The position numbers were made by a program, and so were the translations under genes. The notes below the pieces were generated by a model. The model had not been told where the DNA came from and made no database searches. It was given only the letters and a program-made list of their open reading frames with translations. Positions 6,364-60,250 of a stretch of 64,000 nt of DNA are shown here, piece by piece (the stretch's first letter is position 1; each line of letters begins with the position of its first letter). The DNA comes from an uncultured cyanobacterium (GTDB taxonomy: Bacteria; Cyanobacteriota; Cyanobacteriia; PCC-6307; Cyanobiaceae). Location of the stretch: contig CAVONQ010000018.1 of NCBI GenBank assembly GCA_963697335.1, positions 352,001 to 416,000 of the forward strand, in the 5' to 3' direction.

Positions 6364-6429
6364 ACCTGGGCCCAGAAGGCTGTGCCAGAGGCGTTTCGAT
6401 GCCGCTGTTGATCCGCCCTCGCGGACGCC

Positions 6430-6579
6430 TCAGTCCTCGTGATCGTCGAAGGGATCGGTGAGCTGGCGGGAGGGCGGCCCAAAGGCCATGTAGATGCCGA
6501 AGCCGGTGAGCCCAAGCAACACGGCCAGCACGGCCAGGGCGACGGAGAGGGCAGGCGAGCCGCTGGTGCTGGGATCCAT
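6430..6579 (-). CDS. psbN: Photosystem II assembly protein PsbN
   Basis: One TM helix then GIYMAFGPPSRQLTDPFDDHED; divergent from psbH. Confidence 0.95.
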   Translation of the reverse strand: MDPSTSGSPALSVALAVLAVLLGLTGFGIYMAFGPPSRQLTDPFDDHED

Positions 6580-6716
6580 GGGGGAAGGCAGGGGGGCGGG
6601 CGAACGGGAGGGAGGGCCCCAACGATCGGTCACATCTCTCGAAAGCCTGGCGCACAAGGCCTTGGAGAGCACTAGAGTAGCCATCCCAACACCTCAGGCG
6701 AGAGGCCCAAGCAGCC

Positions 6717-6917
6717 ATGGCTCAACGCACACCTCTCGGAGATCTGCTGCGTCCACTGAATTCCGAATACGGCAAAGTCGTGCCCGGCTGGGGTACCACC
6801 GCCGTCATGGGCATCTTCATGGCCCTGTTTCTGGTGTTCCTGCTGGTGATCCTGCAGCTCTACAACCAGTCACTTCTGCTCGAAGGCATCAACGTGAACT
6901 GGAACGGTGCAGGCTGA
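6717..6917 (+). CDS. psbH: Photosystem II protein H
   Basis: [18 protein letters not shown] motif. Confidence 0.97.
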
Positions 6918-46143: not shown

Positions 46144-47223
46144 TCAGCCGATCGCCGGGGCGGTCAGAGCCACGGGGGTGGCTTCTGCTGCAGCCAGGTC
46201 GAGGGGGAAGTTGTGAGCGTTGCGCTCGTGCATCACTTCCATACCCAGGTTGGCGCGGTTCAGCACGTCGGCCCAGGTGTTCACCACGCGGCCTTGGCCA
46301 TCGAGGATCGACTGGTTGAAGTTGAAACCGTTCAGGTTGAAGGCCATCGTGCTCACGCCCAGGGCGGTGAACCAGATGCCGACCACCGGCCAGGCAGCCA
46401 GGAAGAAGTGCAGGCTGCGGCTGTTGTTGAAGCTGGCGTATTGGAAGATCAGGCGACCGAAGTAACCGTGGGCAGCCACGATGTTGTAGGTCTCTTCCTC
46501 TTGGCCGAACTTGTAGCCGTAGTTCTGGCTCTCGCTCTCGGTGGTTTCACGCACCAGGGAGGAGGTCACCAGCGAGCCGTGCATGGCGGAGAACAGGGAG
46601 CCACCGAACACACCGGCCACACCCAGCATGTGGAAGGGGTGCATCAGGATGTTGTGCTCAGCCTGGAACACCAGCATGAAGTTGAAGGTGCCGCTGATGC
46701 CGAGGGGCATTCCGTCGGAGAAGGAGCCCTGACCGAAGGGATACACCAGGAACACAGCCGAAGCAGCAGCCACGGGGGCGCTGTAGGCAACACAGATCCA
46801 GGGGCGCATGCCCAGGCGGTAGGAGAGTTCCCACTCACGACCCATGTAGCAGAAGATGCCGATCAGGAAGTGGAAGACAACCAGCTGGTAAGGACCGCCG
46901 TTGTAGAGCCACTCATCGAGGCTGGCAGCTTCCCAGATGGGATAGAAGTGCAGGCCGATGGCGTTGCTGGAGGGCACAACAGCACCGGAGATGATGTTGT
47001 TGCCGTAGATCAGCGAACCGGCAACCGGCTCACGGATGCCGTCGATGTCAACAGGGGGAGCGGCGATGAACGCCACGATGTAGCAGATGGTCGCAGCCAG
47101 CAGGGTGGGGATCATCAGCACGCCGAACCAGCCCACGTAGAGGCGGTTGTTGGTGGAGGTGACCCACTCGCAGAACTGCTGCCAGCTGGAGGCGCCGGAG
47201 CGCTGCTGGAGAGTGGTGGTCAT
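46144..47223 (-). CDS. psbA: Photosystem II D1 protein (Glu130, D1:2-type)
   Basis: [36 protein letters not shown]; 359 aa. Confidence 0.99.
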
Positions 47224-47436
47224 GAGAACAGGTGATGGGTGCTCGAAAGAGCAGGTAAGTAGGACGGCAGAAGCACTGCAGGGCAAAACCCGGAAGCAGG
47301 AACGGCCGCGGGACGGAACCCCGTCGCTGCTTAACGTAACAGAACGTTGCGGGGTTTGTGAAGAGGGGTTGAGTGTGGTGAACCCACCTTGCGCCTGGCG
47401 CCGGCCCTCAGGGCGCCTCCGTTCAGGCGGCGGGCG

Positions 47437-48411
47437 ATGAGGGGTCGCTCAAAGCTGGTCACCTGGAGCCCGAGCCTCACCCTGGTGCCCACCTCCAGCT
47501 GCTTCAACCGCTGCGGCTACTGCGGTTTTCGCCAGGAGCCCGACCCGCAGGATCCTCTGGCGGACGCGCTCACACAGCCTGAAGCGCAGGCCAGCCTCGA
47601 TCGCCGCCCCAGGGCGGGAGAGGTGCTGCTGCTCAGTGGCGAGGTGGCTCCAGAGGCGCCCCAGCGGCGGGCCTGGTTTCTGTTGTTGCTGCGCCTCAGC
47701 CGCCTCGCCCTGGCCAATGGCCGCCTGCCCCACACCAATGCCGGCCCCCTCTCGCTCCAGGAGATGGCGGCCCTGGGGCGCCTCAATCCCTCCATGGGCC
47801 TGATGCTCGAAGGCCTGGGGCCGGCCTGGCAGCGCTGGCATCGCCAGGCCCCCAGCAAGCGGCTGGAGCTGCGCTTGCTGCAGCTGGAGCAGGCCGGCCG
47901 CCTCGGTATCCCCTTCACCACCGGCCTCCTGCTCGGGGCGGGCGAGAGCTCCAGGGATCGGCGCCAGGCCCTGGAGTTGATCACCCAGCTTCACGTCACC
48001 TGGGGCCACGTGCAGGAGGTGATCCTGCAGCCTTTCCGTCCTCCAGGTCCGTCGCCGGCGGAGCTCGATCCGCCCAGCTGCAATGAGCTGCTGGAGCTGA
48101 TCGCCGAGGCGCGCCACATCCTGCCGCCCGAGGTGCACCTGCAGCTGCCCCCCAACCTCTGGCCGCGTCAGCGGCTGGTGGAGGCCCTCGAGGCCGGCAT
48201 CGATGACCTCGGCGGTATCGACGGCGAGGGGGATGTGATCAATCCCGCCTATTCCCAGCCGTCGCCCCAGGCGCTGACGCGGCAGTTGGTGGCGGCCGGC
48301 TGGGAGCTGCGCCCGCGGCTCTGCGTGCACCGCCCCTGGCTCGCCTGGTTGCCGGCGCCCCTGCGGCAGCGGGCGCAGGCCATGGCCCAGCGGCTCGATC
48401 GCTCTGGTTAG
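47437..48411 (+). CDS. cofG: 7,8-didemethyl-8-hydroxy-5-deazariboflavin synthase subunit CofG
   Basis: [47 protein letters not shown]. Confidence 0.9.
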
Positions 48412-48443
48412 TGTCGCGCCATCACCAACGTGAGTGACGGACC

Positions 48444-50024
48444 TTGAGCACCACCAGTCCCCACCGGGTGCTGCTCGTGAGGCTGCCCTGCAATCCGATT
48501 TTTCCGATCGGCCCCGTCTACCTCGCCGACCATCTGCACAAGCAGTTCCCTGATCTGCAGCAGCGGTTTCTCGACCTCGCCGCTCTGCCGGTGCTCGATG
48601 TGGAGCGCATTCTGGCCGCCGTGGTGGACAGTTTCCGCCCCACCCTGCTGGTGTTCTCCTGGCGTGACATCCAGATCTATGCCCCGGTGGATGGCCGCAG
48701 TGGCAACCCGCTGCAGCACTCCTTCGAGGTGTTCTACGCCCGCAACCCGCTCAAGCGGCTGCGCGGAGCCCTGGGGGGCCTGGGCCTGATGCGCGCTTTC
48801 TACGCCGAGCTCTGGCGCAACCTGCGGCTGGTGCGGCAAGGGGTGAAGCGGGCCCGGCGCTATCAGCCCGAAGCCCGCGCCGTGATCGGGGGCGGTGCCG
48901 TGAGTGTGTTCTATGAGCAGCTCGGGCGCCAGCTGCCCCCCGGCACGGTGGTGTCGGTCGGCGAGGGCGAACCCCTGCTGGAGAAGTTGGTCAGGGGCGA
49001 CTCCCTGGCCGGAGAGCGCTGCTTTGTGGCCGGCGAAGAGCCCCGCCCGGGTCTGATCCATGAGCAGCCCGGCAGTCTGGAGAAAACGGCCTGCAACTAC
49101 GACTACATCGCCTCGATCTGGCCCCAGCTCGACTGGTACCTCGAGGGGGGTGACTTCTACGTGGGGGTGCAGACCAAGCGGGGCTGTCCCCACAACTGCT
49201 GCTACTGCGTGTACACGGTGGTGGAGGGCAAGGCGGTGCGGGTGAATCCGGTGGAGGAGGTGATCGCTGAGATGGGGCAGCTCTACCGCCGGGGGGTGCG
49301 CGGCTTCTGGTTCACCGATGCCCAGTTCATCCCGGCCCGCCGCTACATCGAGGATGCCAAGGAATTGCTGCGGGCGATCCTGGCCGAAGGCTGGCACGAC
49401 ATCCGCTGGGCCGCCTACATCCGCGCCGACAATCTCGATGCCGAGCTGGCCGAACTGATGGTGGCCACCGGCATGGAGTATTTCGAGATCGGCATCACTT
49501 CGGGTTCCCAGGAGCTGGTGCGCAAGATGCGCATGGGCTACAACCTGCGCACCGTGCTGGAGAACTGCCGGCTGCTGGCCAGGGCCGGATTCCGCCACCA
49601 TGTGTCGGTGAACTACTCGTTCAATGTGATCGATGAGCGCCCCGAAACCATCCGCCAGACGGTGGCCTACCACCGCGAGCTGGAGCGCATCTTCGGCGCC
49701 GACAAAGTGGAACCGGCGATCTTCTTCATCGGCCTGCAGCCCCACACCCACCTGGAGCAATACGGCTTCGAACAGGGCCTGATCAAGCCGGGCTATAACC
49801 CGATGAGCATGATGCCCTGGGCGGCGCGCAAGACGCTCTGGAACCCCGAGCCGATGGGCAGCACCTTTGGGCGCATCTGTCTGGAGGCGTTTGACCGCAA
49901 CCCCGGCGACTTCGGCCGCACGGTGATGGACCTCCTGGAGCGGGATTACGGCCTGGCGCCCCTGGATGAGGCCCTCAGGGCTCCGGTGGAAGGCCGTCGC
50001 GCCCTCGCCAACGCGGTGCGCTGA
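48444..50024 (+). CDS. B12-binding radical SAM protein (cyanobacterial PSII high-light acclimation type)
   Basis: RLPCNPIFPIGPVYLADH, SWRDIQIYAP, KRGCPHNCCYC. Confidence 0.88.
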   Translation: MSTTSPHRVLLVRLPCNPIFPIGPVYLADHLHKQFPDLQQRFLDLAALPVLDVERILAAVVDSFRPTLLVFSWRDIQIYAPVDGRSGNPLQHSFEVFYARNPLKRLRGALGGLGLMRAFYAELWRNLRLVRQGVKRARRYQPEARAVIGGGAVSVFYEQLGRQLPPGTVVSVGEGEPLLEKLVRGDSLAGERCFVAGEEPRPGLIHEQPGSLEKTACNYDYIASIWPQLDWYLEGGDFYVGVQTKRGCPHNCCYCVYTVVEGKAVRVNPVEEVIAEMGQLYRRGVRGFWFTDAQFIPARRYIEDAKELLRAILAEGWHDIRWAAYIRADNLDAELAELMVATGMEYFEIGITSGSQELVRKMRMGYNLRTVLENCRLLARAGFRHHVSVNYSFNVIDERPETIRQTVAYHRELERIFGADKVEPAIFFIGLQPHTHLEQYGFEQGLIKPGYNPMSMMPWAARKTLWNPEPMGSTFGRICLEAFDRNPGDFGRTVMDLLERDYGLAPLDEALRAPVEGRRALANAVR

Positions 50025-50098: not shown

Positions 50099-52243
50099 GT
50101 GCGTTACGAGTGGGTCGAGCAACACGCCGAGGAGGATTGCGGCGCGGCCTGCCTGGCCACAGTGGCCCGCTACCACGGCCGCCGGCTGGCCCTCTCCCGG
50201 GTGCGCGAACTGGTGGGCACGGGGACCCGAGGCACCACCTTGCTGGGCCTGCGGCGGGGAGCCGACGCCGTCGGTTTCCATGCCCGGGCGGTGCGGGCCG
50301 ATGGGGCCCTGCTCGACCGCCTCGAGGCGCTGCCCCTGCCGGCGATCTGTCACTGGCAGGGAAACCACTGGGTGGTGCTGTACGGCCGGAAGGGCCGCAA
50401 GCTGGTGATTGCGGATCCGGCTGTCGGGATCCGCAGGTTGTCACCTGAGGAGTTTCGAGCCGGTTGGGGCAACGGGGTGCTGTTGCTGCTTGAGCCGGAT
50501 CTCAACCGTCTGCTGGAGCAGCCGCAGGAGGAGCGGCTGCCGTTTCTGCGCTTCCTGCGGCTGAGCTGGCCCTACCGGGGTTTGCTGCTGCAGGCCCTTG
50601 GCATCAACGTGGTGATCGGCCTGCTGGCCCTGGCCATGCCGCTGTTGATGCAGCTGCTCACCGATGATGTGCTGGTGCGCCGGGATAGCCAACTGCTCAC
50701 CAGCCTTGGCCTGGCGATGCTGTTTCTGTTTGTCTTTCGCAGCGCCATCAGCCTGATCCAGGGCCACATAGTGGGTCATTTCGCCCAGCGCCTTCAGCTG
50801 GGGATGGTGCTGGAGTACGGCCATCGGCTGCTGCGCTTGCCGATGACCTATTTCGACAGCCATCGCAGTGGCGAGGTGGTGAGCCGGATTGGCGACATCA
50901 GCCGGATTAATGCCCTGATCAGCGATCTGGTGTTGGGCCTGCCCAGTGACTTCTTCATTGCTGCCATCTCGCTGGTGGTGATGCTGATCTACAGCCCTCC
51001 ACTGACGGTCGTGTCCCTGTTGGCGTTTGGAATTTTGATCGCTTCCGGACTGCTATTTCTGCCAGCTCAATACGAAAAAAGCCGCCGCGTGATTGTGGAA
51101 TCCGCGGAGAATCAGGGGTTTCTGGTGGAGATCTTCCGTGGCGCCCAGGTGCTTAAAACCACCGAGGCGTTGCCCCAGGCCTGGGACGAGTACCAGCGCA
51201 ATTTCGGCAGCGTTGCGCACCTGCGTTGGGATGCACTGCAGTTGTCGTTGTTCAGTGGCACCACCACCGGGCTGCTGTCGCGGGTCACCACCCTGGCCCT
51301 CCTCTGGTATGGCAGCAGCTTCGTGATTTCTGGTCAACTCTCCATCGGCCAGTTGCTTGCTTTCAGCGGTATGAGCGGCAATGTGCTCGGTTTTCTGGAA
51401 TCCCTCGTGGACTTCACCGACGACTACCTGACCGCCAACGTGGTGATCAGGCGGCTCTCGGAGGTGCTGGAGGGCAGCCTGGAGGACCCTAAGGCGATCG
51501 ACAAGCCATGGGTGGCCCTGCCGCAGCCGTGCGAGATCCAGTGCCGCAATCTCAGCTTCCACCATGCCGGCCGGCTGGACCTGCTCAGCAACCTTCACCT
51601 CACCATTCCCGCCGCCTGCTGCACCGCCGTGATCGGGGAATCTGGCTGCGGCAAGAGCACCCTGGTGAAGCTGCTGGCCGGCCTCTATCCACCCCAGAGC
51701 GGCTCGATCCACTACGGACCCTACGGCCGTCACGACATCTCCCTGGACTGCCTGCGGCGGCAGGTGGTGCTGGTGCCCCAGGAGGCCCAGTTCTTCAACC
51801 GCACGATCTTCGAGAATTTTCGCTTCGCCTATCCCGACGTCAGCTTCGATCAGGTGGTGGCGGCCTGCGAGCGGGCACTGGCCGACGAATTCATCCGCGA
51901 CCTGCCGGACGGTTACCAGACCGTGCTGGGAGAATTCGGCGCCAACCTCTCGGGTGGTCAGCGCCAGCGCCTGGCGATCGCGCGCGCCCTGGTGTCCTGT
52001 CCGGCCGTGCTGATCCTGGATGAATCCACCGCCGCGTTGGACCCGGTGCTGGAGCGGCGCCTGATGGACAACCTCCTGCAGCATCGCAAGGGTTTGACCA
52101 CGGTGATGATCAGTCACCGCCCGAGCGTCATCCAGCGCTGTGATTGGCTGGTGTACCTGGAGCGAGGCCACGTCGTGTCCCAGGGTCGACCCCAGGACCT
52201 GGGCAACAGTGCACCACTGGCCCCCTACCTGCTGACGGCATGA
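50099..52243 (+). CDS. Peptidase C39-containing ABC transporter (PCAT, double-glycine leader exporter)
   Basis: QHAEEDCGAAC, NHWVV, IADP catalytic residues; TM domain; GESGCGKST, LSGGQ, ILDES, ISH. Confidence 0.95.
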   Translation: MRYEWVEQHAEEDCGAACLATVARYHGRRLALSRVRELVGTGTRGTTLLGLRRGADAVGFHARAVRADGALLDRLEALPLPAICHWQGNHWVVLYGRKGRKLVIADPAVGIRRLSPEEFRAGWGNGVLLLLEPDLNRLLEQPQEERLPFLRFLRLSWPYRGLLLQALGINVVIGLLALAMPLLMQLLTDDVLVRRDSQLLTSLGLAMLFLFVFRSAISLIQGHIVGHFAQRLQLGMVLEYGHRLLRLPMTYFDSHRSGEVVSRIGDISRINALISDLVLGLPSDFFIAAISLVVMLIYSPPLTVVSLLAFGILIASGLLFLPAQYEKSRRVIVESAENQGFLVEIFRGAQVLKTTEALPQAWDEYQRNFGSVAHLRWDALQLSLFSGTTTGLLSRVTTLALLWYGSSFVISGQLSIGQLLAFSGMSGNVLGFLESLVDFTDDYLTANVVIRRLSEVLEGSLEDPKAIDKPWVALPQPCEIQCRNLSFHHAGRLDLLSNLHLTIPAACCTAVIGESGCGKSTLVKLLAGLYPPQSGSIHYGPYGRHDISLDCLRRQVVLVPQEAQFFNRTIFENFRFAYPDVSFDQVVAACERALADEFIRDLPDGYQTVLGEFGANLSGGQRQRLAIARALVSCPAVLILDESTAALDPVLERRLMDNLLQHRKGLTTVMISHRPSVIQRCDWLVYLERGHVVSQGRPQDLGNSAPLAPYLLTA

Positions 52244-53385
52244 GCGAGCTTCCCGTCCGGGTGGCTGACGCCACCGAGAGCCAGCAGCTGCGCCCGGCCT
52301 CTGTTCAGGAGTTCCTGCCCTCGGTACGCCCCTGGGTGCGGCTGGCCGGCGTCGTGCTGGTGGGGAGTTTTGTGGCCGGCGTGGCGTTGATGGCGGTGTG
52401 GCCCTACCGAGTGGTGGTCAGAGCAGCAGGGTCTGTGCGGCCCAGTGGCGAGACCAGCCTGGTGCATGCGCCGCGGGATGGGCGGGTGAGGGAGATCCGC
52501 ATCCAGCCCAATCAGGAGGTCGAACGGGGTGAGGTGCTGGCGGTGATGGATCCCGCCGATCTGGAGGGCAGGGAGCTGAAGCTGCGGCAGGGCGGCACAT
52601 CGCTCGATGACCAGCTGGCGGCGCAGCGCAGGGAGAACACGGCTGCACTGCAGGCGGCACGACTGGAGGTCGAGAAGGCCCGGGCCACCCTTGATCTGGC
52701 CCGCTCGGAGTACCAGCGCTACAGCCAGCTCGTCAGCAGCGGTGCCGCCTCCCGGGAGCAGATGGAGGAGAAGCGTGCCAGTCTGAGCGTGGCGTCATCC
52801 AACCTGGCCAAGGCCCAGCGGGATGTGGAGCAGCAGCAGTCCCGGGGCGAGACTGCCCTGGCGAGACTGGGACAGCAACAGGTTGAAAACCAGGCGGAAC
52901 GGGCCCAGCTCGGCCGTGATCTCGGACGCCAGCTGATCAGGGCGCCCGTAGGGGGTGTGATCTTCTCCCTCACCCTCCGCAACCCCCTCCAGGTGGTCAC
53001 GGCCGGCCAGGAGCTGGCGCAGATCGCGCCCGAGGGGGCGCCGTACCTGGCGAAGGTGCAAGTGTCATCAGCGGACATCGCCAATGTGGAGGTGGGCCAG
53101 CGGGCCGATCTGCGCCTGGCGGGCTGTCCCTTCCCCGATTTCGGGACCCTGCGGGCCGAGGTGGTGTCCGTGGCTCCTGATGCGGCTGCGGTTCCGTCTG
53201 CTCCCGGTGGCGCGGGGGCCAGTGGCTATGCGGTGACACTGCGCCCGGAGCAGACCCAGCTGCGCTCGTCGTCCCGAAGCTGTGAGCTGCGGCTGGGCAT
53301 GGACCTCACAGCTGACATCACCACCCGGGTCGAGACCGTGCTCCAGTTCCTGTTGCGCAAGACCCGGCTGCTGGTGGGGCTGTGA
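52240..53385 (+). CDS. HlyD-family membrane fusion (periplasmic adaptor) protein
   Basis: ATG overlaps the PCAT stop (ATGA); one TM, GSVRPSGE, coiled coil, IRAPVGG, PFPDFGTL, LRLGM. Confidence 0.92.
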   Translation: MSELPVRVADATESQQLRPASVQEFLPSVRPWVRLAGVVLVGSFVAGVALMAVWPYRVVVRAAGSVRPSGETSLVHAPRDGRVREIRIQPNQEVERGEVLAVMDPADLEGRELKLRQGGTSLDDQLAAQRRENTAALQAARLEVEKARATLDLARSEYQRYSQLVSSGAASREQMEEKRASLSVASSNLAKAQRDVEQQQSRGETALARLGQQQVENQAERAQLGRDLGRQLIRAPVGGVIFSLTLRNPLQVVTAGQELAQIAPEGAPYLAKVQVSSADIANVEVGQRADLRLAGCPFPDFGTLRAEVVSVAPDAAAVPSAPGGAGASGYAVTLRPEQTQLRSSSRSCELRLGMDLTADITTRVETVLQFLLRKTRLLVGL

Positions 53386-53517
53386 TGCTGTGGCGACCCC
53401 CCTGGGCGGGACGCTTCCTCCTGCTGGGCGTGGGATTCATCGCAGTTCAGGCGTGGTGGGCTCCGCGCTGGGTTCTGCCAGCAGCCAGCACAGCCCCATG
53501 GGGGAGCAACAGCAGGG

Positions 53518-53572
53518 GTAAGAGTTTTCTTGCCGCTTTCCTGCCAATCTCTTACCGCCCATCTTGTAGTTT
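53518..53572 (+). promoter_or_regulatory. Operator/promoter of precursor 1: GTAAGA-N4-TCTTGCC-N4-TCCTGCC-N4-TCTTACC-N10-TAGTTT
   Basis: Three heptads at 11-bp period (53528, 53539, 53550) and a -10-like hexamer at 53567; same layout as 54095-54149. Confidence 0.7.
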
Positions 53573-53711
53573 ACGATCAGAACAGTCCCTTGGACTGATC
53601 AACCGATGGGCCAAACATGACCCACGTCTTGATCGCCAGAGGTCGGACGTCCGTCTGTTCAGGCCTTTCTGAATACAGAGTCTGATTTAAGTTCATCAAG
53701 AGGAGCAATCC

Positions 53712-53942
53712 ATGAACACAGAATCCATAGCAGACATGAGCCTGCCGGGGCTCAATCTGCTCTCGGGAGCAGAGAGCTTCATCCACGATCTCAACCCTGA
53801 AGATGAGGCCTCGATCGCGGGCGGCAGTGGCAGGCGCAGCCGTCTGCGCAGCCGCCGCAGCCGCCTTCGCAGCCGCCTCCGCAACCGCCGCAGCCGTTTG
53901 CGCAGTCGCCGCAGCCGTCTGCGCAGCCGCCGCAGGCGTTAG
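53712..53942 (+). CDS. Double-glycine leader precursor peptide A1 with Arg/Ser/Leu repeat core
   Basis: AGGAG RBS; 38-aa leader ending DLNPEDEASIAGG; core SGRRSRLRSRRSRLRSRLRNRRSRLRSRRSRLRSRRRR. Confidence 0.88.
   Translation: MNTESIADMSLPGLNLLSGAESFIHDLNPEDEASIAGGSGRRSRLRSRRSRLRSRLRNRRSRLRSRRSRLRSRRRR
53830..53939 (+). repeat. Imperfect 21-bp coding tandem repeat (RRSRLRS x4)
   Basis: CGCCGCAGCCGTCTGCGCAGC-like units with synonymous variation. Confidence 0.8.
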
Positions 53943-54094
53943 GAGGGTGGGTGGCCAGGTCTCCCAACAGGGGCTGTGCCCCCCGATGTTCACAAGGGGG
54001 CGCGCACCTCTCGAGGGTTGCATGGCTGGGGTGATGAAGTCACCTCGCTTGGCGTGACGGGAGCCCTACCCCATGGCGGTCACGCAGGGGAACA

Positions 54095-54149
54095 GTAAGA
54101 CTACTCTTACCATTCTCCTGCCATTCTCTTACTGTTCACCTGTTACATT
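54095..54149 (+). promoter_or_regulatory. Operator/promoter of precursor 2: GTAAGA-N4-TCTTACC-N4-TCCTGCC-N4-TCTTACT-N10-TACATT
   Basis: Heptads at 54105, 54116, 54127; extended -10 TGtTACATT at 54141-54149. Confidence 0.7.
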
Positions 54150-54300
54150 CCTATTAGTCCAGCCAAGAAGGCCGGACTGGTGGACAGGGCCGAAAGCCGC
54201 ACACAGATCACAGATCACAGAGCACTGATGGTCTTGTTGCCTACGGTTCTCTCCATCGCTCAATCAACCCTGGCACTTTGCCGAAACGGAGGAATACCGC

Positions 54301-54528
54301 ATGAACACACAAACCACAGCCGATGTTGCGTTGCTGGGCCTCGACCTGCTGCTCGGGCCCGATAGCCTCATCAGTGAGCTCAGTCCTGAGGATGAGGCCT
54401 CGATCTCGGGTGGCCGCCGTCGCCGCAGCCGCAGCGGCATCAGCCGTCCCAGCCGCAGCCGTCCCAGCCGCCGCAGCCGTCCCAGCCGTCCCAGCCGTAG
54501 CTTCCGGCGCAACCGCAGGCGCCGTTGA
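54301..54528 (+). CDS. Double-glycine leader precursor peptide A2 with Arg/Ser/Pro repeat core
   Basis: GGAGG RBS; 38-aa leader ending ELSPEDEASISGG (23/38 identical to A1); core RRRRSRSGISRPSRSRPSRRSRPSRPSRSFRRNRRRR. Confidence 0.88.
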   Translation: MNTQTTADVALLGLDLLLGPDSLISELSPEDEASISGGRRRRSRSGISRPSRSRPSRRSRPSRPSRSFRRNRRRR

Positions 54529-54573
54529 GCAAGTGACTGACCGGGGAACTTCTCCCCCTGTCGAGAGCTTCAG

Positions 54574-54609
54574 ACCCCGGGGCTGCTGGATGCCAGCCTC
54601 GGGGTTTTT
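54574..54609 (+). terminator. Intrinsic terminator/attenuator after precursor 2
   Basis: ACCCCGGGGCTG-N8-CAGCCTCGGGGT 12-bp stem (one G:U) followed by a T tract. Confidence 0.75.
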
Positions 54610-54671
54610 CTATAGCCTTGATCAAGTCCCTTGGGGCTGGAGCTTGTTGTTGCCGTGGTGAGTCTGGGGTC

Positions 54672-57164
54672 ATGGTCGTTCGTTTGAATTCGGAGGGCAT
54701 CCACGAGTATTTGATGCATCAGGGTCTGTGCGATTCAACGGATGTCGTTGAAGACGTTCAACAGTTGATTGGCAAAAATATGAATCTGCTGGTTCAACTC
54801 ACAAAGCCTGATGCTCAACCTTCAAGAGCCCGTCACTTGCTGATCAAGCAGGGACCGATCGGGCGATCGGAGCTGCCCAAACAGGATTTTGAAGAGGAAT
54901 GGAGAATTCATCAGCTGCTGGCTGGCCACGAACAGCTGTTTCCCCTGCAGGCCTTGCTGCCAGAGGGGATCAAGTTTGACGTCGCCAATGCCATTCAGAT
55001 CTTTCGATATCTTGAATCGTATGGCGATCTTGGCGACTTCTATGACGATGCCAAGCGGTTTCCCACCAAGGTCCCTGTGGCCCTCGGCAGTGCCCTAGCC
55101 GCGCTGCATCAGGCAACGTTCAGCCGCCAAGACTATCTTCTCCAATTAGATCCAGAGAGTGCTGATGAGGGATGTGAAAAGCCTGACTTTCGCGATGAGC
55201 TTGAGAATCTCACTCCAGAGATCTTCCGGCAGATCTCGATTGATGGTTTGCAATTCTACAGATTGTACAACCGATCAGAAGAGCTCTCGAAGGCCATAGC
55301 TCAGCTGGAGCATGACTATGAACCATGCTGCTTGATCCACAATGACCTGAAGTTTAGAAATATCCTGCTTCATGATGATTGGTCCCGCTGGCAGCCCCCG
55401 TCGTCCCTTCCTGCTTCTGTCCATGAGTTGTGTCTGCCCGATGCTCAGGGCCTTGTGCGTCTGATTGATTGGGAGCAATGGGCATGGGGTGACCCGGCCT
55501 TTGATGTGGGCGCCCTTGTGGCTGAGTATCTGCGGCTGTGGTTAAAGAGTCTGGTGCTCAGCCGCGATGTTGACCTGGTGGTGGCGTTGCAGCTTGCTGC
55601 CGTGCCCCTGGACACGCTGCAGCCCTCCCTTGCGGCCTTCATGCAGGCCTATCTGGCCCAGTTCCCCGGCATCCTGGCGGCGTTTCCCGCCTTCCCAGCA
55701 CGGGTGCTGCGCTTCGCCGGCCTCGGTTTGATTGGGGCGATTCAGGACAGGCTGCACTATCGGGAGTCCTGTGGAAATCTGGAAATTGCGATGCTGCAAG
55801 TGGCCAGATCATTGCTCTGCAATCCGGAAGCCGCCATGGTCACGGTGTTCGGCTGCAGGGATGTTCAACCTGATGGCTTTCAACCTTCTGGCCTTGAACC
55901 TGACCTTGCACCTGGCCTTGAACGTGACGTTGGAGACAGCGGCAGCCCTTCTCCCGCCCAATCCCCACGCGACAAGTGTGAACTGCAGGGCCAGGTGCCT
56001 CTGCCCCTTTGGGTGCAGCGTGGCCCTAGTGAGGAGGCTCTCGCTGACCTGATCACCAATGTTCGAATTGAGCCTCCACTGATTTTTCATCCGGCCTACC
56101 AGGTCCTTGATCTGGTCCATCCAGGGGAACCTCAGAGCACGGGGATGGATCAACGCCAGCAATGCTTGAGCAAGTTGCCTGACGACCTTCGCCAGGCCTA
56201 TCTGGTGCGTCAGGTGAGAAACTATCTGCATGATATCTACTTCAGTGGCGAGCGGGAAAGGAAGGGGCCTGGGATTGCGGCGACCAAGGAGTTCAAGAAC
56301 GATTCTGTTTCTGGACTCAACGTGGATTACTTTCATCGGATCGAGCTGGCCAATGGCGGCACAGGCTTTCCTGACCCCGACTGGATGATCCTTCGCTGGG
56401 ATGGCGATCGTGCTCAGGTGGAAAAAGATGGTCTGCGACTCTGGGTTAATCCCTGCGTTGACCTTGTGAAGGATGAGGCCTTGAAGCTGAGCTCCATCCG
56501 GCGTGAGGGTCCACCATCAGTAACTGTGGGTGCAGCAGTGGGTGCAGCAATGGCTGTGGGAACAACGGTGGTGTTACGGTTGCCCAATGCAGTTTTGACT
56601 GAAGAGAGCTACAGCGCGATCGGCAATGGAGGAGAGCCTGCTCCTGATCAGCCTTGCATCATCATCTACTTCAATATCAGTGCTGAAGGTGCTCTTCTGC
56701 TGATGGATGTTCTGACCAAGGCCCTGAATCTGCAGGGATGCCCCTTCGCTTTGACCATCCTGACTGATCCTGCCTGCTATGGCCGATTCAACAGTGTCAC
56801 CTTGATGATCGAGGCTACTCACTATCAGGACGTACGCACCATTCTCTGTGAGCTTCAGGCCAGGCTTCAGCCCCATCTGAGCCATCCGATTCCCCTGTTC
56901 ACCTGGCCTCTGGCCCCGGGCATCGGTCTGGCCGAATGCCCGCAGGACGAGGATGACTTTGGTCTGTCTCGATGCCAGATCCTGGCCGAAGCCCTGATCC
57001 TGGCTGATGCCAGTCCCGAGTCCCGGCGGCAAGCCATGCGAGCAAAGTTTTCCGAGCGCAAGCTGAACTGGCAACATCCCCACCTCAATCCTGAATCAGA
57101 CTCCCACTACCCACCCCTGCCGCCACGGGACCGTAGCCAGGCGGCGAATGTCCATCTCAACTAG
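54672..57164 (+). CDS. Fused APH-family phosphotransferase + HopA1-like domain protein (putative RiPP maturase), 830 aa
   Basis: N-half: GKNMNLLV, LLIKQ, IHNDLKFRNIL, LIDWE...GDPAFD. C-half: IYFN, YGRFNS, PLFT..LAPGIGLAE, FGLSRCQ, HPHLN resembling HopA1 family. Confidence 0.8.
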   Translation: MVVRLNSEGIHEYLMHQGLCDSTDVVEDVQQLIGKNMNLLVQLTKPDAQPSRARHLLIKQGPIGRSELPKQDFEEEWRIHQLLAGHEQLFPLQALLPEGIKFDVANAIQIFRYLESYGDLGDFYDDAKRFPTKVPVALGSALAALHQATFSRQDYLLQLDPESADEGCEKPDFRDELENLTPEIFRQISIDGLQFYRLYNRSEELSKAIAQLEHDYEPCCLIHNDLKFRNILLHDDWSRWQPPSSLPASVHELCLPDAQGLVRLIDWEQWAWGDPAFDVGALVAEYLRLWLKSLVLSRDVDLVVALQLAAVPLDTLQPSLAAFMQAYLAQFPGILAAFPAFPARVLRFAGLGLIGAIQDRLHYRESCGNLEIAMLQVARSLLCNPEAAMVTVFGCRDVQPDGFQPSGLEPDLAPGLERDVGDSGSPSPAQSPRDKCELQGQVPLPLWVQRGPSEEALADLITNVRIEPPLIFHPAYQVLDLVHPGEPQSTGMDQRQQCLSKLPDDLRQAYLVRQVRNYLHDIYFSGERERKGPGIAATKEFKNDSVSGLNVDYFHRIELANGGTGFPDPDWMILRWDGDRAQVEKDGLRLWVNPCVDLVKDEALKLSSIRREGPPSVTVGAAVGAAMAVGTTVVLRLPNAVLTEESYSAIGNGGEPAPDQPCIIIYFNISAEGALLLMDVLTKALNLQGCPFALTILTDPACYGRFNSVTLMIEATHYQDVRTILCELQARLQPHLSHPIPLFTWPLAPGIGLAECPQDEDDFGLSRCQILAEALILADASPESRRQAMRAKFSERKLNWQHPHLNPESDSHYPPLPPRDRSQAANVHLN

Positions 57165-57181
57165 CCAGCAATCAGGATGCG

Positions 57182-57886
57182 ATGAGAATTCTAGTGGTTG
57201 AAGATGATGCTGGGATTTCCAGATTCATCCAGCAAGGACTGAGCGAGGCTGGCTACGCTATCGACGTGGCTTCTGATGGTCCCGAAGGATTGCGATTTGC
57301 CGAGGCCGCTGACTACGATGCCGTAGTGCTCGACGTGTTGCTGCCTGGTCAGGATGGCTTGAGCGTCCTGAAGAGCCTGCGCCAGCAGGGCCTTCAGACC
57401 CCGGTGCTGCTGTTGACGGCCCTGGATACCGTCGAAGACCGAGTGCTGGGTTTGGATGCAGGGGCTGATGACTACCTGATCAAACCATTTGACTTCACAG
57501 AACTACTGGCTCGCCTGCGCGCATTGCTCCGGCGCCCGCCCTTGCATGCCGATGTCGTGCTCAGAGTGGGTCGTCTGCAGATGGACACAGTCCACAGGAT
57601 TGTCAAGCGGGATGACCATCCGATTGAGCTCAGCCCACGGGAGTATTCCCTGCTGGAATATCTGATGCGCAATGCGGATCACGTTCTCAGCCGCACCCAG
57701 ATCGCCCAGCATGTCTGGAGTTTTGACTTTTATGGAGACTTCAAGGTGATTGATGTCTATATTGGCTATCTGCGTCGAAAAATCGATCAGCAGGGATCGC
57801 CGTCGTTGATCAGAACCGTGCGTGGTGTGGGTTATTCGATGAACGCTCATGTGGAGGCTTCCCCTGCTGAAGGAGTCGGCCCCTGA
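57182..57886 (+). CDS. OmpR/PhoB family response regulator
   Basis: ILVVEDD, VLDVLLP, LLTA, GADDYLIKPF, LSPREY, IRTVRGVGY. Confidence 0.96.
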   Translation: MRILVVEDDAGISRFIQQGLSEAGYAIDVASDGPEGLRFAEAADYDAVVLDVLLPGQDGLSVLKSLRQQGLQTPVLLLTALDTVEDRVLGLDAGADDYLIKPFDFTELLARLRALLRRPPLHADVVLRVGRLQMDTVHRIVKRDDHPIELSPREYSLLEYLMRNADHVLSRTQIAQHVWSFDFYGDFKVIDVYIGYLRRKIDQQGSPSLIRTVRGVGYSMNAHVEASPAEGVGP

Positions 57887-57911
57887 TCCCATTACCTTCC
57901 ATGTTTAGATC

Positions 57912-59375
57912 ATGGTGATGCAGCGAAAGTCCTGGCAAAGTCTGCGCTTGAGGCTGGTGGCCTGGTACAGCTTGTTGGCCGGCGTTTCGATGCTTGTTTC
58001 CGATGGCTATACCTATCTGGAGTTTCGACAGACCCTGCTGGCCCAGATTGACCGTTCTCTGGAGGTCAGCGCAATTCAGGCCCGCAAGAATCTTGACGAT
58101 GAAGTTGATGCGCTGGTGTTTGACCCCCGCCGGGACGCGCCGCTGCTGGCCTCCCTGCTTAATGATGCGGGCGTAGAAATCTATTTGATCAGTTTGGATG
58201 GTTCGATCAAGGAGCAGTTCGGAGACTCGCTCTCATCCCTCAGCACATCCAACCTCGAACCTGGATACCATACCGTCGCCAGGTCCAGTGGGCGTTGGCG
58301 AACCTATACCAAGGAACTTCTTGCCAGTGGGGGTGATCCCTCGGGATGGCTGAAGGTGGCTCAGTCGCTCAAGCCCATGGATGCCACCTTGGCCAGGGTG
58401 TTTCAGCGCAATCTTCTCAAGCTACCCATTCTGCTTGGCATGATTGCCCTTGGCGGACTGTTTCTGGCCAACCGTGCCCTGCAACCCATCGCCCGAATCA
58501 CAAGAACGATTCAGCATATTCGGGTGAGTGGAGATCTCGCCCAGCGCATTCACTACAAGAGCAGTGCTGCTGATGAACTGGCGCGCCTGGCTACTCTCAT
58601 TGATGGGATGCTGGATTCCATTCAGTCCACCTTTGACCACGAAAGACGATTCACTGCCGATGCATCCCATGAGCTTCGCACCCCGCTGACAGCCATGAAG
58701 GGTCGTCTGCAGGTGACCCTGAGCCAACTCCGCACGGTCGACACTTACGAAGAGACCCTCAGGGCGATCGGGCTGGAAGTGGATCGTTTGATTCGTCTCA
58801 GCAATGATCTGCTGCTGCTCTCCCGTCTGGAGCAGAACCACATCAATCCTCCCATGGAAAAGGTGGATCTTGGCCATTTACTCGCCGAGTCGGCTGCCCA
58901 GATTCAGCCGCTGGCTGAACTTCGCCATCTCCATCTGACGACGACCCTTGAGCCCGATCTTTTTATCCAGGGATACCCAGACCATCTGATTCGTTTGTTT
59001 CTGAACCTGCTCGATAATGCCGTCAAAAATACTCCCGATGAGGGCTCTGTGGGTGTGCAGGCCCTGACCTTCTCAAGCATGGTGCAGGTCACCCTTCGTG
59101 ACAGCGGCGTCGGCATCCCCTCTGAGCACCTGCCCCATCTGTTTGAACGCTTTTATCGCGTCGAGAAATCCCGTTCACGCGCCTTGGGTGGCACAGGTCT
59201 GGGCCTGGCCATTGCCCAGGAAATCGTCCATCGCCACCACGGCACGATCTCCGTGGCGAGTCAGCCTGGCCTGGGGACGACCTTCACGATCAGATTTCCA
59301 TGTCATCGCGATGCCGCAGCCGATTCCCATGCCCCTCAGCCCAGGCACCGACTGGGATCAGCAGAGTCCAGCTAG
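57912..59375 (+). CDS. Membrane sensor histidine kinase (2 TM, HAMP, HisKA, HATPase_c)
   Basis: DELARLA, FTADASHELRTPL, NLLDNAVK, DSGVGI, FERFYR, GTGLGLAI. Confidence 0.95.
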   Translation: MVMQRKSWQSLRLRLVAWYSLLAGVSMLVSDGYTYLEFRQTLLAQIDRSLEVSAIQARKNLDDEVDALVFDPRRDAPLLASLLNDAGVEIYLISLDGSIKEQFGDSLSSLSTSNLEPGYHTVARSSGRWRTYTKELLASGGDPSGWLKVAQSLKPMDATLARVFQRNLLKLPILLGMIALGGLFLANRALQPIARITRTIQHIRVSGDLAQRIHYKSSAADELARLATLIDGMLDSIQSTFDHERRFTADASHELRTPLTAMKGRLQVTLSQLRTVDTYEETLRAIGLEVDRLIRLSNDLLLLSRLEQNHINPPMEKVDLGHLLAESAAQIQPLAELRHLHLTTTLEPDLFIQGYPDHLIRLFLNLLDNAVKNTPDEGSVGVQALTFSSMVQVTLRDSGVGIPSEHLPHLFERFYRVEKSRSRALGGTGLGLAIAQEIVHRHHGTISVASQPGLGTTFTIRFPCHRDAAADSHAPQPRHRLGSAESS

Positions 59376-60250
59376 CCGCTCCTCCCATGGGCCTGTTCAT
59401 TGCTGCCCTGGCACCGGGGAGGGCCTTGGCGCTGTTGAACGAGCAGCACAGCCAGCAGCCCCAGCCAGCCGATCGCACCCCCCAGTGGGTTGGTGCCTGA
59501 GCCCACACCGCCGGGCCCGGCCCACCAGCCGGGCGCCTCGGCCGACACCGCCAGCAGCCCGCTCTGCACCAGGAACCAGCCGCCCACGAGGCCACCGTGC
59601 AGCGCCGCCGGCCCCCACAGCAGGCCGTTCCCCCCTTGCCTCTCCCGGGCCAGCACCACCCCCAGCAGGATCAGGCCCCCCAGCAGGCTGAATGCCAGGA
59701 GCCCATTCTCCTGATACCAGGGGTGCACCAAGCCAAACACCAGGGCCTGCAGCAGCAGCGCCAGGGGATCCTTCAGCCCCAGCCGCAGTTCACCCCAGAG
59801 CCAGCCGCGAAATAGCAGCTCCTCCGCCAGGCCCACGCCGCAGGCCAGCAGCAGGGCATTCACGAGCAGGCCCCCATCCAACCTGCCCAGCCAGCGGGCC
59901 TGCCCGCTGAGCAGCAGCGCCACGCTCACCAGTGCCAGCAAGGCCAGGGCTTTGGCCAACCCCCTGGCGGCGCTGGCCAGGGCTCGGCGGGGGCTGCAGA
60001 TGAGGCCAAGGGTCCTCCAGGGTCGCGACACCCCCCAGGCGGTGCGCAGACGCCACGGCAGCGTGGCCAGCAGAAGGGCAAAGGAGAGCGACACGCCGGC
60101 CAGGTCCACCTGGTCAGGCCGCCAGCCAGGTGCCAGCCAGCCCAGGGGCCGGGAGAGCAGGAAGCCCACGCCATAGAGCACGGGCACATAGAGCACCGTG
60201 CCCCACCAGCGGGGCATGGGTGCAGGCCCAGCCGGGCCTGGCGCCGCCAT
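59372..60250 (-). CDS. CPBP (CAAX protease/Abi) family intramembrane metalloprotease
   Basis: AEELLFRG, FGLVH, LHGG motifs; multiple TMs. Confidence 0.88.
   Translation of the reverse strand: MAAPGPAGPAPMPRWWGTVLYVPVLYGVGFLLSRPLGWLAPGWRPDQVDLAGVSLSFALLLATLPWRLRTAWGVSRPWRTLGLICSPRRALASAARGLAKALALLALVSVALLLSGQARWLGRLDGGLLVNALLLACGVGLAEELLFRGWLWGELRLGLKDPLALLLQALVFGLVHPWYQENGLLAFSLLGGLILLGVVLARERQGGNGLLWGPAALHGGLVGGWFLVQSGLLAVSAEAPGWWAGPGGVGSGTNPLGGAIGWLGLLAVLLVQQRQGPPRCQGSNEQAHGRSG

Follow-up and report, generated by a model that had tools for sequence, protein, structure and literature searches.

Arginine/serine-repeat precursor peptides beside a fused kinase–HopA1 protein in a picocyanobacterial accessory island: a candidate route to iterative serine phosphorylation

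Here we describe a compact peptide secretion system in a 64,000-nucleotide stretch of DNA (hereafter the window) from an uncultured cyanobacterium of the family Cyanobiaceae (GenBank assembly GCA_963697335.1, contig CAVONQ010000018.1, positions 352,001 to 416,000), in which two small paralogous genes, A1 and A2, lie upstream of a gene for a kinase/HopA1 fusion protein that we call KH. On the evidence of their sequences, A1 and A2 are precursor peptides of the RiPP (peptide made by the ribosome and modified after translation) type belonging to an accessory secretion island, each joining a conserved acidic leader that ends in a double glycine (GG) to a core of Arg/Ser repeats, while KH resembles both halves of the kinase–lyase pair of class V lanthipeptides and has lost residues on which the lyase reaction depends. 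The overall explanation that we favor, with a probability of roughly 0.5, is that the core serines would be phosphorylated iteratively rather than dehydrated, after which the peptides would be cleaved at the GG motif and exported. The feature is a distinct variant of cyanobacterial kinase/HopA1 clusters that have already been catalogued; specific to the variant are the joining of kinase and HopA1 in one protein, a lyase triad that has been lost, repeat cores rich in basic and hydroxyl residues, and a dedicated promoter box, all of which are new within the open-access literature that we searched.

A first-pass annotation of this DNA, made from the letters alone, had singled out A1 and A2 as paralogous precursors with a shared leader and differing Arg/Ser cores, and translation agrees with its description in every detail. 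Both leaders are 38 residues long, are identical at 23 of these 38 positions, carry seven acidic and no basic residues each, and close on the motif (D/E)LxPEDEASI(A/S)GG. The 38-residue core of A1 is made up of 22 Arg, 9 Ser, 5 Leu, 1 Gly and 1 Asn, with RRSRLRS occurring four times, and the 37-residue core of A2 of 19 Arg, 10 Ser and 4 Pro together with a single Gly, Ile, Phe and Asn, with four copies of SRP; both cores terminate in RRRR, and Lys, Cys, Thr, Asp and Glu are absent from both. The same periodicity is present in the DNA as tandem repeats of a 21-bp unit in core A1 (4.2 copies, 53847–53935) and of a 9-bp unit in core A2 (6.8 copies, 54441–54498). The annotation had also likened the cores to protamines and RS domains, a likeness that holds for composition and not for homology, with no Pfam or NCBIfam family matching A1 or A2 at E <= 0.01. 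An Rfam search over the repeats returned a single sub-threshold chance match, to mir-3960, at 28.6 bits where the gathering score is 73.

Repeats of this kind might be taken for chance open frames across GC-rich tandem DNA rather than genes: at a GC content of about 0.67 all frames are open at A1 and A2, and an Ala-rich frame as well as antisense open reading frames overlap them. Against this stands the pattern of substitution over the leaders, where the ratio of nonsynonymous to synonymous change (pN/pS) comes to 0.37 when read in the proposed frame, as opposed to 1.09 and 1.29 for the other two frames (computed from 10 of 11 orthologous or paralogous leaders, that of locus L017, with an N-terminus 3 residues longer, being excluded). 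The leader is moreover conserved over five genera and has 20 true matches among 1.84 billion representative sequences, and A1 and A2 are equipped with ribosome-binding sites (GGAG type, 6–8 nt 5' of each ATG), a dedicated promoter box and a putative terminator. The chance-frame explanation is thus left with a negligible share of the probability, and A1 and A2 are, as far as such sequence signatures go, real, selected reading frames. They are the only two copies in the source genome (2.58 Mb, 98.8% complete).

Of 301 genomes sampled from the same family, 8 contain KH; they are spread over 5 of 64 genera, and within the genus of the source genome 3 of 16 further genomes have it. The loci total nine, and at all nine at least one precursor with the leader and an Arg/Ser-rich core lies directly upstream of KH. 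The leader-based hidden Markov model search that the first-pass annotation had proposed as a check uncovered a family: 11 peptides at the window locus and the eight related loci (E 2.7e-10 to 2.1e-27, with the next match at E 0.61), in every one of which the GG is invariant; the motif turned up in no frame but the proposed one, upstream of KH. Against the 1.84 billion representatives, the profile of these 11 leaders returned 21 matches at E <= 0.001, comprising 20 small GG-leader peptides and one false positive (P0065), and 19 of the 20 have an Arg- or Lys-rich core with Ser or Thr. Across the 11 cores, 200 basic residues face 99 Ser and Thr, equivalent to 198 potential negative charges at about two charges per phosphate, and full phosphorylation would roughly neutralize the core charge, which in A1 and A2 is +19 to +22.

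The family extends to distant cyanobacteria, such as one (L052) in which a fused KH of 33% identity is paired with an Arg/Thr core, and another (L053) with separate kinase (~5737–6855) and HopA1 (~4700–5692) genes and a precursor (3984–4367, minus strand) whose Lys/Ser/Gly-rich core ends in Cys-Lys-His and recalls diatom silaffins in composition. In a collection of 5.8 billion proteins, matches to KH at E <= 1e-10 formed 40 clusters, 38 of them combining the two Pfam domains on a single chain some 800 residues long, and the source names of these clusters are only "phosphotransferase", "HopA1 family" or "hypothetical". Several members depart from the common pattern. P0063 has a clearly homologous GG leader and a core of the opposite type, built of Asp/Lys/Tyr repeats (..KDDDDKDDDDKYDDDKYDDDKYDDK..), and a minority of cores contain Cys (L013:7200–7397, minus strand; L017:8192–8452, plus strand; P0046; P0052; P0059; for example RSRSRSRCRSRSRSRCRSR), which may serve in ring formation or disulfides. 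In one relative (G132), a single contig covered by the overlapping stretches L017 and L019 has two complete clusters, inverted with respect to each other and flanking the CofG and slr0320-type radical SAM genes, each with its own exporter pair, one precursor and one KH (51% and 46% identity to the KH of the window), and with a single regulator and sensor-kinase pair lying between them.

The KH open reading frame comprises 848 codons (54618–57164) from a TTG at 54618, from which we number its residues; the true start is likely the ATG at 54672, giving a protein of 830 residues, because homologues are about 800–830 residues long and the closest relative has a stop just upstream of the equivalent ATG. 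An LxmK-like Ser/Thr kinase (19–415) is followed by a poorly conserved linker (416–465) and an LxmY/HopA1-like domain (about 466–838). We built a KH profile from 36 sequences, namely that of the window and 35 of the 40 clusters (left out were P0005, which is 99% identical, the shorter P0008 and P0017, and P0034 and P0043, which have the HopA1 part only). At E <= 0.001 this profile matched in the PDB only 9dk1_B "Lyase" (2.2e-08) and 9dk1_A "Kinase" (1.9e-04), and 9DK1 is the LxmK/LxmY heterodimer described as dehydrating Ser and Thr of the lexapeptide precursor (PMC12141560). An AlphaFold model of KH (mean pLDDT 80.1, pTM 0.77, disordered linker at 429–459) has as its top six PDB matches both LxmKY chains of three entries (E 4.4e-12 to 1.1e-10, TM score 0.71–0.80 by target length, the 0.80 being that to 9dk2_A). 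Profile and fold both lead to the LxmK and LxmY chains, so that by sequence and predicted structure KH corresponds to the class V LanK/LanY pair joined in a single chain. On the NCBIfam LxmK model it scores 85.7 bits, below the cut-off of 315.

The kinase half of KH looks active: its motifs H241-x-D243-x4-N248 and D284-W-E286 are invariant in all 36 sequences and align with HCDLRF and VDWE of LxmK. The first-pass annotation had envisaged the cores with and without phosphate, a hint that sits well with an enzyme of this predicted type next door. Apparent stops within the KH of the closest relative turned out to precede its start codon or to mark its actual end, and that gene is intact. Net charge was discarded as a discriminating property of the enzyme, with KH of the window at -38, the family mean at -29 and standalone HopA1 proteins similarly acidic.

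We obtained support for recognition of the leader by the kinase half from structure prediction of KH (residues 19–848) in complex with A1, which reached an ipSAE of 0.72 (median of three runs) against 0.02 for the best control; of 157 solved complexes 116 attain this mark, as do 2 of 215 mismatched pairs, a rough calibration in which own alignments were used. The runs share at least 35% of their contacts, with a pLDDT of 44 for the partner, and the predicted contacts join leader positions 11–18, 21–24 and 26–31, which form the conserved block, to the kinase C-lobe at 212–220, 308–335 and 386–409. Published models put the leaders of CaoA and LxmA on the same kinase lobe. The prediction supports binding of the A1 leader to the kinase half of KH.

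The HopA1/LanY half presents a different picture from the kinase. According to the mutagenesis passages on the class V protein CaoY in PMC9486802, K219A gives phosphorylated peptide only, elimination all but disappears in R187A and runs inefficiently in R229Q, and the lyases LanY, OspF and LanL have Y236 in common. LxmY has Arg, Lys, Arg and Tyr at the spacing of CaoY (-32, 0, +10 and +17), and an ungapped block, (I/V)L(S/T)DPxx(Y/F)xRx(D/N), anchors KH to the LxmY alignment, so that the columns of CaoY R187, K219, R229 and Y236 correspond to KH positions 682, 713, 723 and 730. In standalone cyanobacterial HopA1 proteins (30 loci from a Pfam search of a 401-genome sample of the phylum) these columns hold Arg in 30/30, Lys in 25/30 (Gln in the other five), Arg in 30/30 and Tyr in 29/30. 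The corresponding counts in the 36 KH sequences are 6 for the first Arg, 22 for Lys, 36 for the second Arg and none for Tyr, which is replaced by Glu in 18 and by Arg in 7. Not one KH sequence retains all four residues; put as losses, Tyr is gone from 36/36, the Arg of the R187 column from 30/36 and the catalytic Lys from 14/36, the window included. KH of the window reads I682, T713, R723 and M730, and the distant L052 and L053 read Gln, Gly, Arg, Arg and Glu, Ala, Arg, Ser, respectively. We infer that canonical beta-elimination has been lost and that the domain still serves some purpose, whether as a partner in the structure, in handling the substrate or by a changed chemistry. Cores found near HopA1 genes with an intact triad point the same way in a small and non-independent sample, the four GG-leader peptides detected (at 3 of 30 short loci) having hydrophobic cores with only 1–3 basic residues. 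Standalone HopA1 genes as such are common, occurring in 45/45 sampled genomes of one cyanobacterial family, often in two or three copies per genome; when short proteins related to the HopA1 half of KH and standing on their own were searched for, one fragment alone came up.

Because the HopA1/LanY half has lost the residues for beta-elimination, phosphates would most likely be kept, and for phosphoserine as the retained modification we consider the odds about even. The strongest competitor is that KH works as a class V-type dehydratase and converts the serines to dehydroalanine, giving a linear, Arg-rich poly-dehydroalanine peptide that would have no rings because the cores of the window lack Cys. 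This outcome, like dehydroalanine as the modification in general, we regard as distinctly less probable than an even bet. It is favored by the homology of both halves of KH to LxmK and LxmY and by the Cys in the cores of a few relatives (L013, L017, P0052, P0059), and it has to contend with the Ile, Thr and Met of the window in place of residues of which R187 and K219, when mutated in CaoY, abolish elimination or nearly so (reported in the passages of PMC9486802 cited above), with the family-wide absence of Tyr and the absence of the first Arg from 30/36 sequences, with the lack of any cyclase, decarboxylase or reductase gene in the island, and with the hydrophobic, non-basic cores near intact-triad HopA1 genes.

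Several observations nonetheless weigh against the explanation that we favor, the first three of them counting directly in favor of a working dehydratase. The catalytic Lys persists in 22/36 KH sequences and R723 in all of them; the HopA1 half is still constrained, with a mean pairwise identity of 0.48 against 0.55 for the kinase half; and W589, K603, Y665, E773 and R785 are common to KH and the standalone HopA1 proteins, the last four of these being shared with intact standalone proteins. Because it remains under constraint and shares invariant residues with the standalone proteins, the HopA1 half does something, and it could eliminate through other residues. The acidic-leaning substitutions, above all Glu in 18/36 sequences at the Tyr column, could be an adaptation to an Arg-rich substrate and not a loss of function, and the assignment of catalytic columns comes from alignment and the equal CaoY/LxmY spacing rather than from superposed coordinates. 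The complex score may partly reflect likeness to related leader–kinase complexes, and the proposed link between the island's regulator and the promoter boxes described below is read from architecture alone. Finally, no immunity gene travelling with the cluster is present in the island, which weakens the case for a self-toxic antimicrobial and argues, as far as gene content can, against an exported form that is toxic to its producer.

A1 and A2 each have a putative regulator box about 190–205 nt 5' of the ATG, composed of three heptamers with an 11-bp period. The pattern TAAGA-N4-TCTTRCC-N4-TCYTNCC with up to two mismatches has exactly two sites in the 2.58-Mb genome, at the promoters of A1 and A2, and the reversed pattern used as a control has none; the box recurs upstream of 9 of the 11 family precursors, and in 8 of these 9 a TAnnnT lies exactly 10 nt past the third heptamer. 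For A1 and A2, transcription would be expected to begin about 7 nt past the TAGTTT and TACATT hexamers, respectively. Promoters activated by PhoB/OmpR-type regulators carry direct heptamer repeats of 11-bp period that replace the -35 element and lie about 10 bp 5' of the -10 hexamer. The boxes fit this architecture in their heptamer repeats, their N10 spacing and, in 8 of 9 cases, their TAnnnT, and by this analogy they probably put A1 and A2 under the OmpR/PhoB-type regulator of the island. Between A2 and KH, folding of the RNA of 54529–54620 (-42 kcal/mol, z -3.11, with 2 of 200 shuffles folding equally well) brought out a terminator-like hairpin, which would hold precursor transcripts in excess over KH; a simple promoter/terminator scan had listed nothing, this hairpin included. 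Between box and ATG, in what is predicted to be the 5' leader of the A2 transcript, there is a 7-bp tandem repeat (CACAGAT, four copies, 54202–54229); a similar stretch, CAGATCGCAGATCACAGAG, occurs in the closest relative.

A box unique to the precursor promoters would also suit autoinduction, which is known from other bacteriocin and lantibiotic systems, and a GG leader with a peptidase-containing ABC transporter (PCAT), an HlyD-family adaptor and a two-component system is the classic layout of a bacteriocin or pheromone. A1 and A2 could on these grounds be class II-like cationic bacteriocins or autoinducing pheromones that are only cleaved and exported and otherwise unmodified, with KH acting elsewhere. 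This we consider very improbable, since KH directly follows a precursor at 9/9 loci as well as at two distant ones, the leader is predicted to dock on KH, and every core joins basic residues with Ser or Thr. A further proposal, made in the first-pass annotation, was that A1 and A2 act as a two-peptide pair. The two neighboring genes do encode different cores, each is served by a box promoter of its own, and both core types recur in the closest relative. Yet a single precursor is found at 7 of 9 loci, two being confined to the source genome and its closest relative, and the genome with two whole clusters has one precursor in each; the pair is unsupported as a trait of the family, and an obligate pairing of A1 and A2 is only slightly less improbable than the unmodified peptide.

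Returning to phosphorylation, we propose the following sequence of events. Each precursor gene would be transcribed from its own box promoter, in which the heptamers replace the -35 element, most likely activated by the regulator and sensor kinase of the island. The conserved amphipathic leader (LxGLxLLSGxxSFIxDLxPEDE) would then dock on the C-lobe of the kinase half of KH, which would phosphorylate the Arg-flanked core serines one after another, with elimination to dehydroalanine by the HopA1/LanY half being absent or inefficient. The C39-peptidase ABC exporter, together with HlyD, would cut after the GG and export the core, as judged from what these families do. Outside the cell, the product could act as a charge-masked cationic antimicrobial, as a signal for the sensor kinase of the island or as a zwitterionic surface- or mineral-active peptide. 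That the precursors are processed by KH and exported is the part of this scheme in which we place high confidence.

The genes concerned form a 9.3-kb island (50099–59375) of seven genes, all on the plus strand, in the order C39-peptidase ABC exporter, HlyD, A1, A2, KH, OmpR-type response regulator and histidine kinase (Table 1). The N-terminus of the exporter has the catalytic Cys (DCG) and His (NHWVV) motifs and, by analogy with its family, the protein would cut behind the GG and carry the core out of the cell. Its scores stay below the cut-offs of the NCBIfam bacteriocin/NHLP exporter models. The start codon of HlyD is uncertain because its open reading frame overlaps the end of PCAT. For the response regulator, the nearest NCBIfam model is a heavy-metal response regulator subfamily (RppA-like OmpR; 264 bits against a cut-off of 279). 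That the exporter and a dedicated enzyme adjoin the precursors bears out the RiPP-type reading of a conserved leader with a variable core.

Table 1 Features of the accessory island and of the A1 and A2 promoters, in window positions
Feature	Position	Strand	Details
Peptidase-containing ABC transporter (PCAT)	50099..52243	+	Pfam Peptidase_C39 2.2e-35, ABC_membrane 2e-36, ABC_tran 1.3e-29
HlyD-family periplasmic adaptor	52144..53385	+	Pfam HlyD_3 4.5e-22; NCBIfam type_I_hlyD 3.9e-37, below cut-off
Putative regulator box of A1	53519..53572	+	TAAGA-N4-TCTTGCC-N4-TCCTGCC-N4-TCTTACC, N10, -10-like TAGTTT
Precursor A1	53712..53942	+	76 residues; leader 53712–53825 (38 residues, ends IAGG); core 53826–53939 (38 residues, RRSRLRS x4); stop
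Putative regulator box of A2	54096..54149	+	TAAGA-N4-TCTTACC-N4-TCCTGCC-N4-TCTTACT, N10, -10-like TACATT
Precursor A2	54301..54528	+	75 residues; leader 54301–54414 (38 residues, ends ISGG); core 54415–54525 (37 residues, SRP repeats); stop
Intrinsic-terminator-like hairpin	54572..54616	+	between A2 and KH; about 15 pairs, then UUUUUCUAU (U-run)
KH, kinase/HopA1 fusion	54672..57164	+	830 residues (likely start); Pfam HopA1 6.2e-38, APH 1.6e-06; NCBIfam LxmK 3.2e-24, below cut-off
OmpR/PhoB-family response regulator	57182..57886	+	Pfam Response_reg 1.1e-27, Trans_reg_C 4e-27
Sensor histidine kinase	57912..59375	+	two membrane segments around a periplasmic domain of about 130 residues, HAMP, HisKA, HATPase_c (Pfam, hydropathy)

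Upstream the island borders on psbA (D1 protein, minus strand), CofG and a gene for an slr0320-type photosystem II high-light acclimation radical SAM protein (46144–50024), and downstream on genes for a CPBP protease, ClpS and LL-diaminopimelate aminotransferase (DapL). In two genomes of the same genus without KH, the order DapL–ClpS–CPBP–radical SAM (slr0320-type)–CofG–psbA is contiguous, and 50099–59375 is therefore an accessory island. GC content falls to 0.56–0.57 at 54–58 kb (A2, KH and the response regulator) against 0.65–0.74 in most of the window, a dip at 54000–58000 that is consistent with horizontal acquisition of part of the island. At related loci, the response regulator and sensor kinase adjoin KH in 7 of 8 cases and lie within 6 kb in the eighth (L017); the contig of L013 ends before the regulator pair. 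The exporter pair (PCAT with HlyD beside it) is adjacent to KH at 5 of the 8, and a PCAT orthologue of at least 74% identity is present in all seven other genomes with KH, residing elsewhere in the genome (74–76% identity) where it is not adjacent; five genomes of the same genus without KH lack the orthologue, two of them carrying a paralogue of 56–57% identity.

Two sets of neighboring genes were considered as further cluster members and rejected. The radical SAM genes at 47389–48411 and 48444–50024 are not tailoring enzymes, being CofG (288 bits against a cut-off of 209) and the slr0320-type acclimation protein of photosystem II (968 bits against a cut-off of 775); we exclude them because both keep their place in genomes lacking the island. 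The CPBP/Rce1-like gene (59372–60250, minus strand), a candidate Abi-type immunity gene, is likewise a backbone gene, present in 5/5 genomes of the same genus without KH (58–66% identity) and still beside ClpS there.

Comparison with known systems helps to delimit the variant. With the class V LanK/LanY pairs (LxmK–LxmY and CaoK–CaoY) the island shares an APH-like kinase and a HopA1-like partner, a leader whose predicted place on KH is the C-lobe of the kinase, in agreement with the proposals for CaoA and LxmA, and a leader-bearing ribosomal substrate, here with a GG. It differs in having both activities on one 830-residue chain, with Ile, Thr and Met at the equivalents of CaoY R187, K219 and Y236, in cores without Cys and in the absence of LanX, LanD and LanJ, so that no lanthionine is possible and elimination is doubtful. 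None of the seven island genes is a LanC, LanX, LanD, LanJ, HFCD, cyclase, decarboxylase or reductase gene. Of the features that define class V lanthipeptides, the LanK kinase is present, and the catalytic residues of LanY and a Cys-containing core with cyclase and decarboxylase genes are both missing; because of these two absences the island is, on its gene and residue content, not a lanthipeptide system.

Also related are the cyanobacterial clusters of HopA1, phosphotransferase and GG-leader peptide that were catalogued by Eyles et al. 2021 (PMC8153245), whose text on these clusters describes the cores only as highly variable and without conserved Ser, Thr or Cys. The island belongs with them in its cyanobacterial host, conserved GG leader, variable cores and combination of HopA1 with a phosphotransferase, and departs from what the text on these clusters covers in its Arg/Ser-repeat cores, its fusion and its loss of lyase residues. 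Supplementary table 2 of the same paper (PMC8153245) contains in row 1529 (network 118) a peptide identical to that of L017, annotated only with a low-complexity Pfam match, and in rows 843, 1528 and 1576 peptides with Arg-rich cores and a similar leader. At the 40% identity cut-off used there, the L017 peptide falls in the two-member network 118 and not in Family 1A, to which row 843 belongs as part of network 1. The standalone HopA1 proteins sampled from filamentous cyanobacteria differ from KH in keeping their catalytic residues and in the hydrophobic cores nearby. Wang et al. 2011 (PMC3140520) count bacteriocin clusters in picocyanobacteria, with no mention of kinases or arginine in the portion of the paper devoted to that count. 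Within the open-access literature that was searched, no description was found of Arg/Ser-repeat cores, fused kinase–HopA1 proteins or a degenerate LanY.

In its secretion and control genes the island resembles GG-leader bacteriocin systems with PCAT and HlyD under two-component control, with which it shares the GG motif, the C39 Cys and His, HlyD, and a sensor kinase with its regulator. The signatures of double-glycine export are all present by sequence, namely GG in 11/11 leaders and a C39 domain with DCG and NHWVV. The island differs from such systems in lacking an immunity gene, in its heavy-metal/RppA-like OmpR regulator (below cut-off) and in a precursor that is predicted to be enzymatically modified.

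Arg/Ser or Lys/Ser repeats also characterize protamines, the RS domains of SR proteins and diatom silaffins, in which serine phosphorylation switches charge. The likeness to A1 and A2, and of the Lys/Ser/Gly core of L053 to silaffins, is one of composition and serves as a lead only; A1 and A2 have no homology to these proteins at the level of Pfam or NCBIfam families, and they are bacterial, leader-dependent and predicted to be exported. Phosphate is known from some RiPPs, phosphorylated lasso peptides among them. Other examples are a cyanobactin kinase domain (PMC12639078) and salivaricin 10 with phosphothreonine (PMC10235938), and as these accounts present them, they share with our proposal a phosphate that is kept in the mature ribosomal peptide and differ in having one or a few phosphates, ordinary scaffolds and unrelated kinases. 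Here, by contrast, about 9–10 candidate sites lie in a polyarginine repeat, and the putative kinase is a LanK with a disabled LanY.

A tentative suggestion, to which we give less than even credence, is that of a distinct RiPP class defined by retained, iterative phosphorylation of Arg/Ser (or Lys/Ser, Arg/Thr) repeats, in which a LanK is fused to a LanY turned non-catalytic or re-purposed, as a bacterial counterpart of the protamine/SR phospho-switch. In such a class, the phosphates would offset the roughly +20 charge of the peptide so that it can be handled and exported safely, and the peptide could be armed when phosphatases of phosphate-scavenging neighbors strip them off; alternatively, it could be zwitterionic and assemble by itself, acting on surfaces or minerals in the manner of silaffins.

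Should the kinase be active and the lyase inactive, the island would represent a natural route to densely phosphorylated polycationic peptides, phosphorylation being a rare chemistry among peptide natural products, and would clearly exemplify how one half of a RiPP enzyme pair can evolve into a pseudo-enzyme. If the lyase works instead, the product would be an unusual linear, Arg-rich poly-dehydroalanine peptide, and either outcome would tell what the catalogued, uncharacterized HopA1/kinase branch makes. In both cases, this is a compact seven-gene system that brings its own promoter box, and it belongs to picocyanobacteria, organisms of ecological importance about whose allelopathy and signalling little is known.

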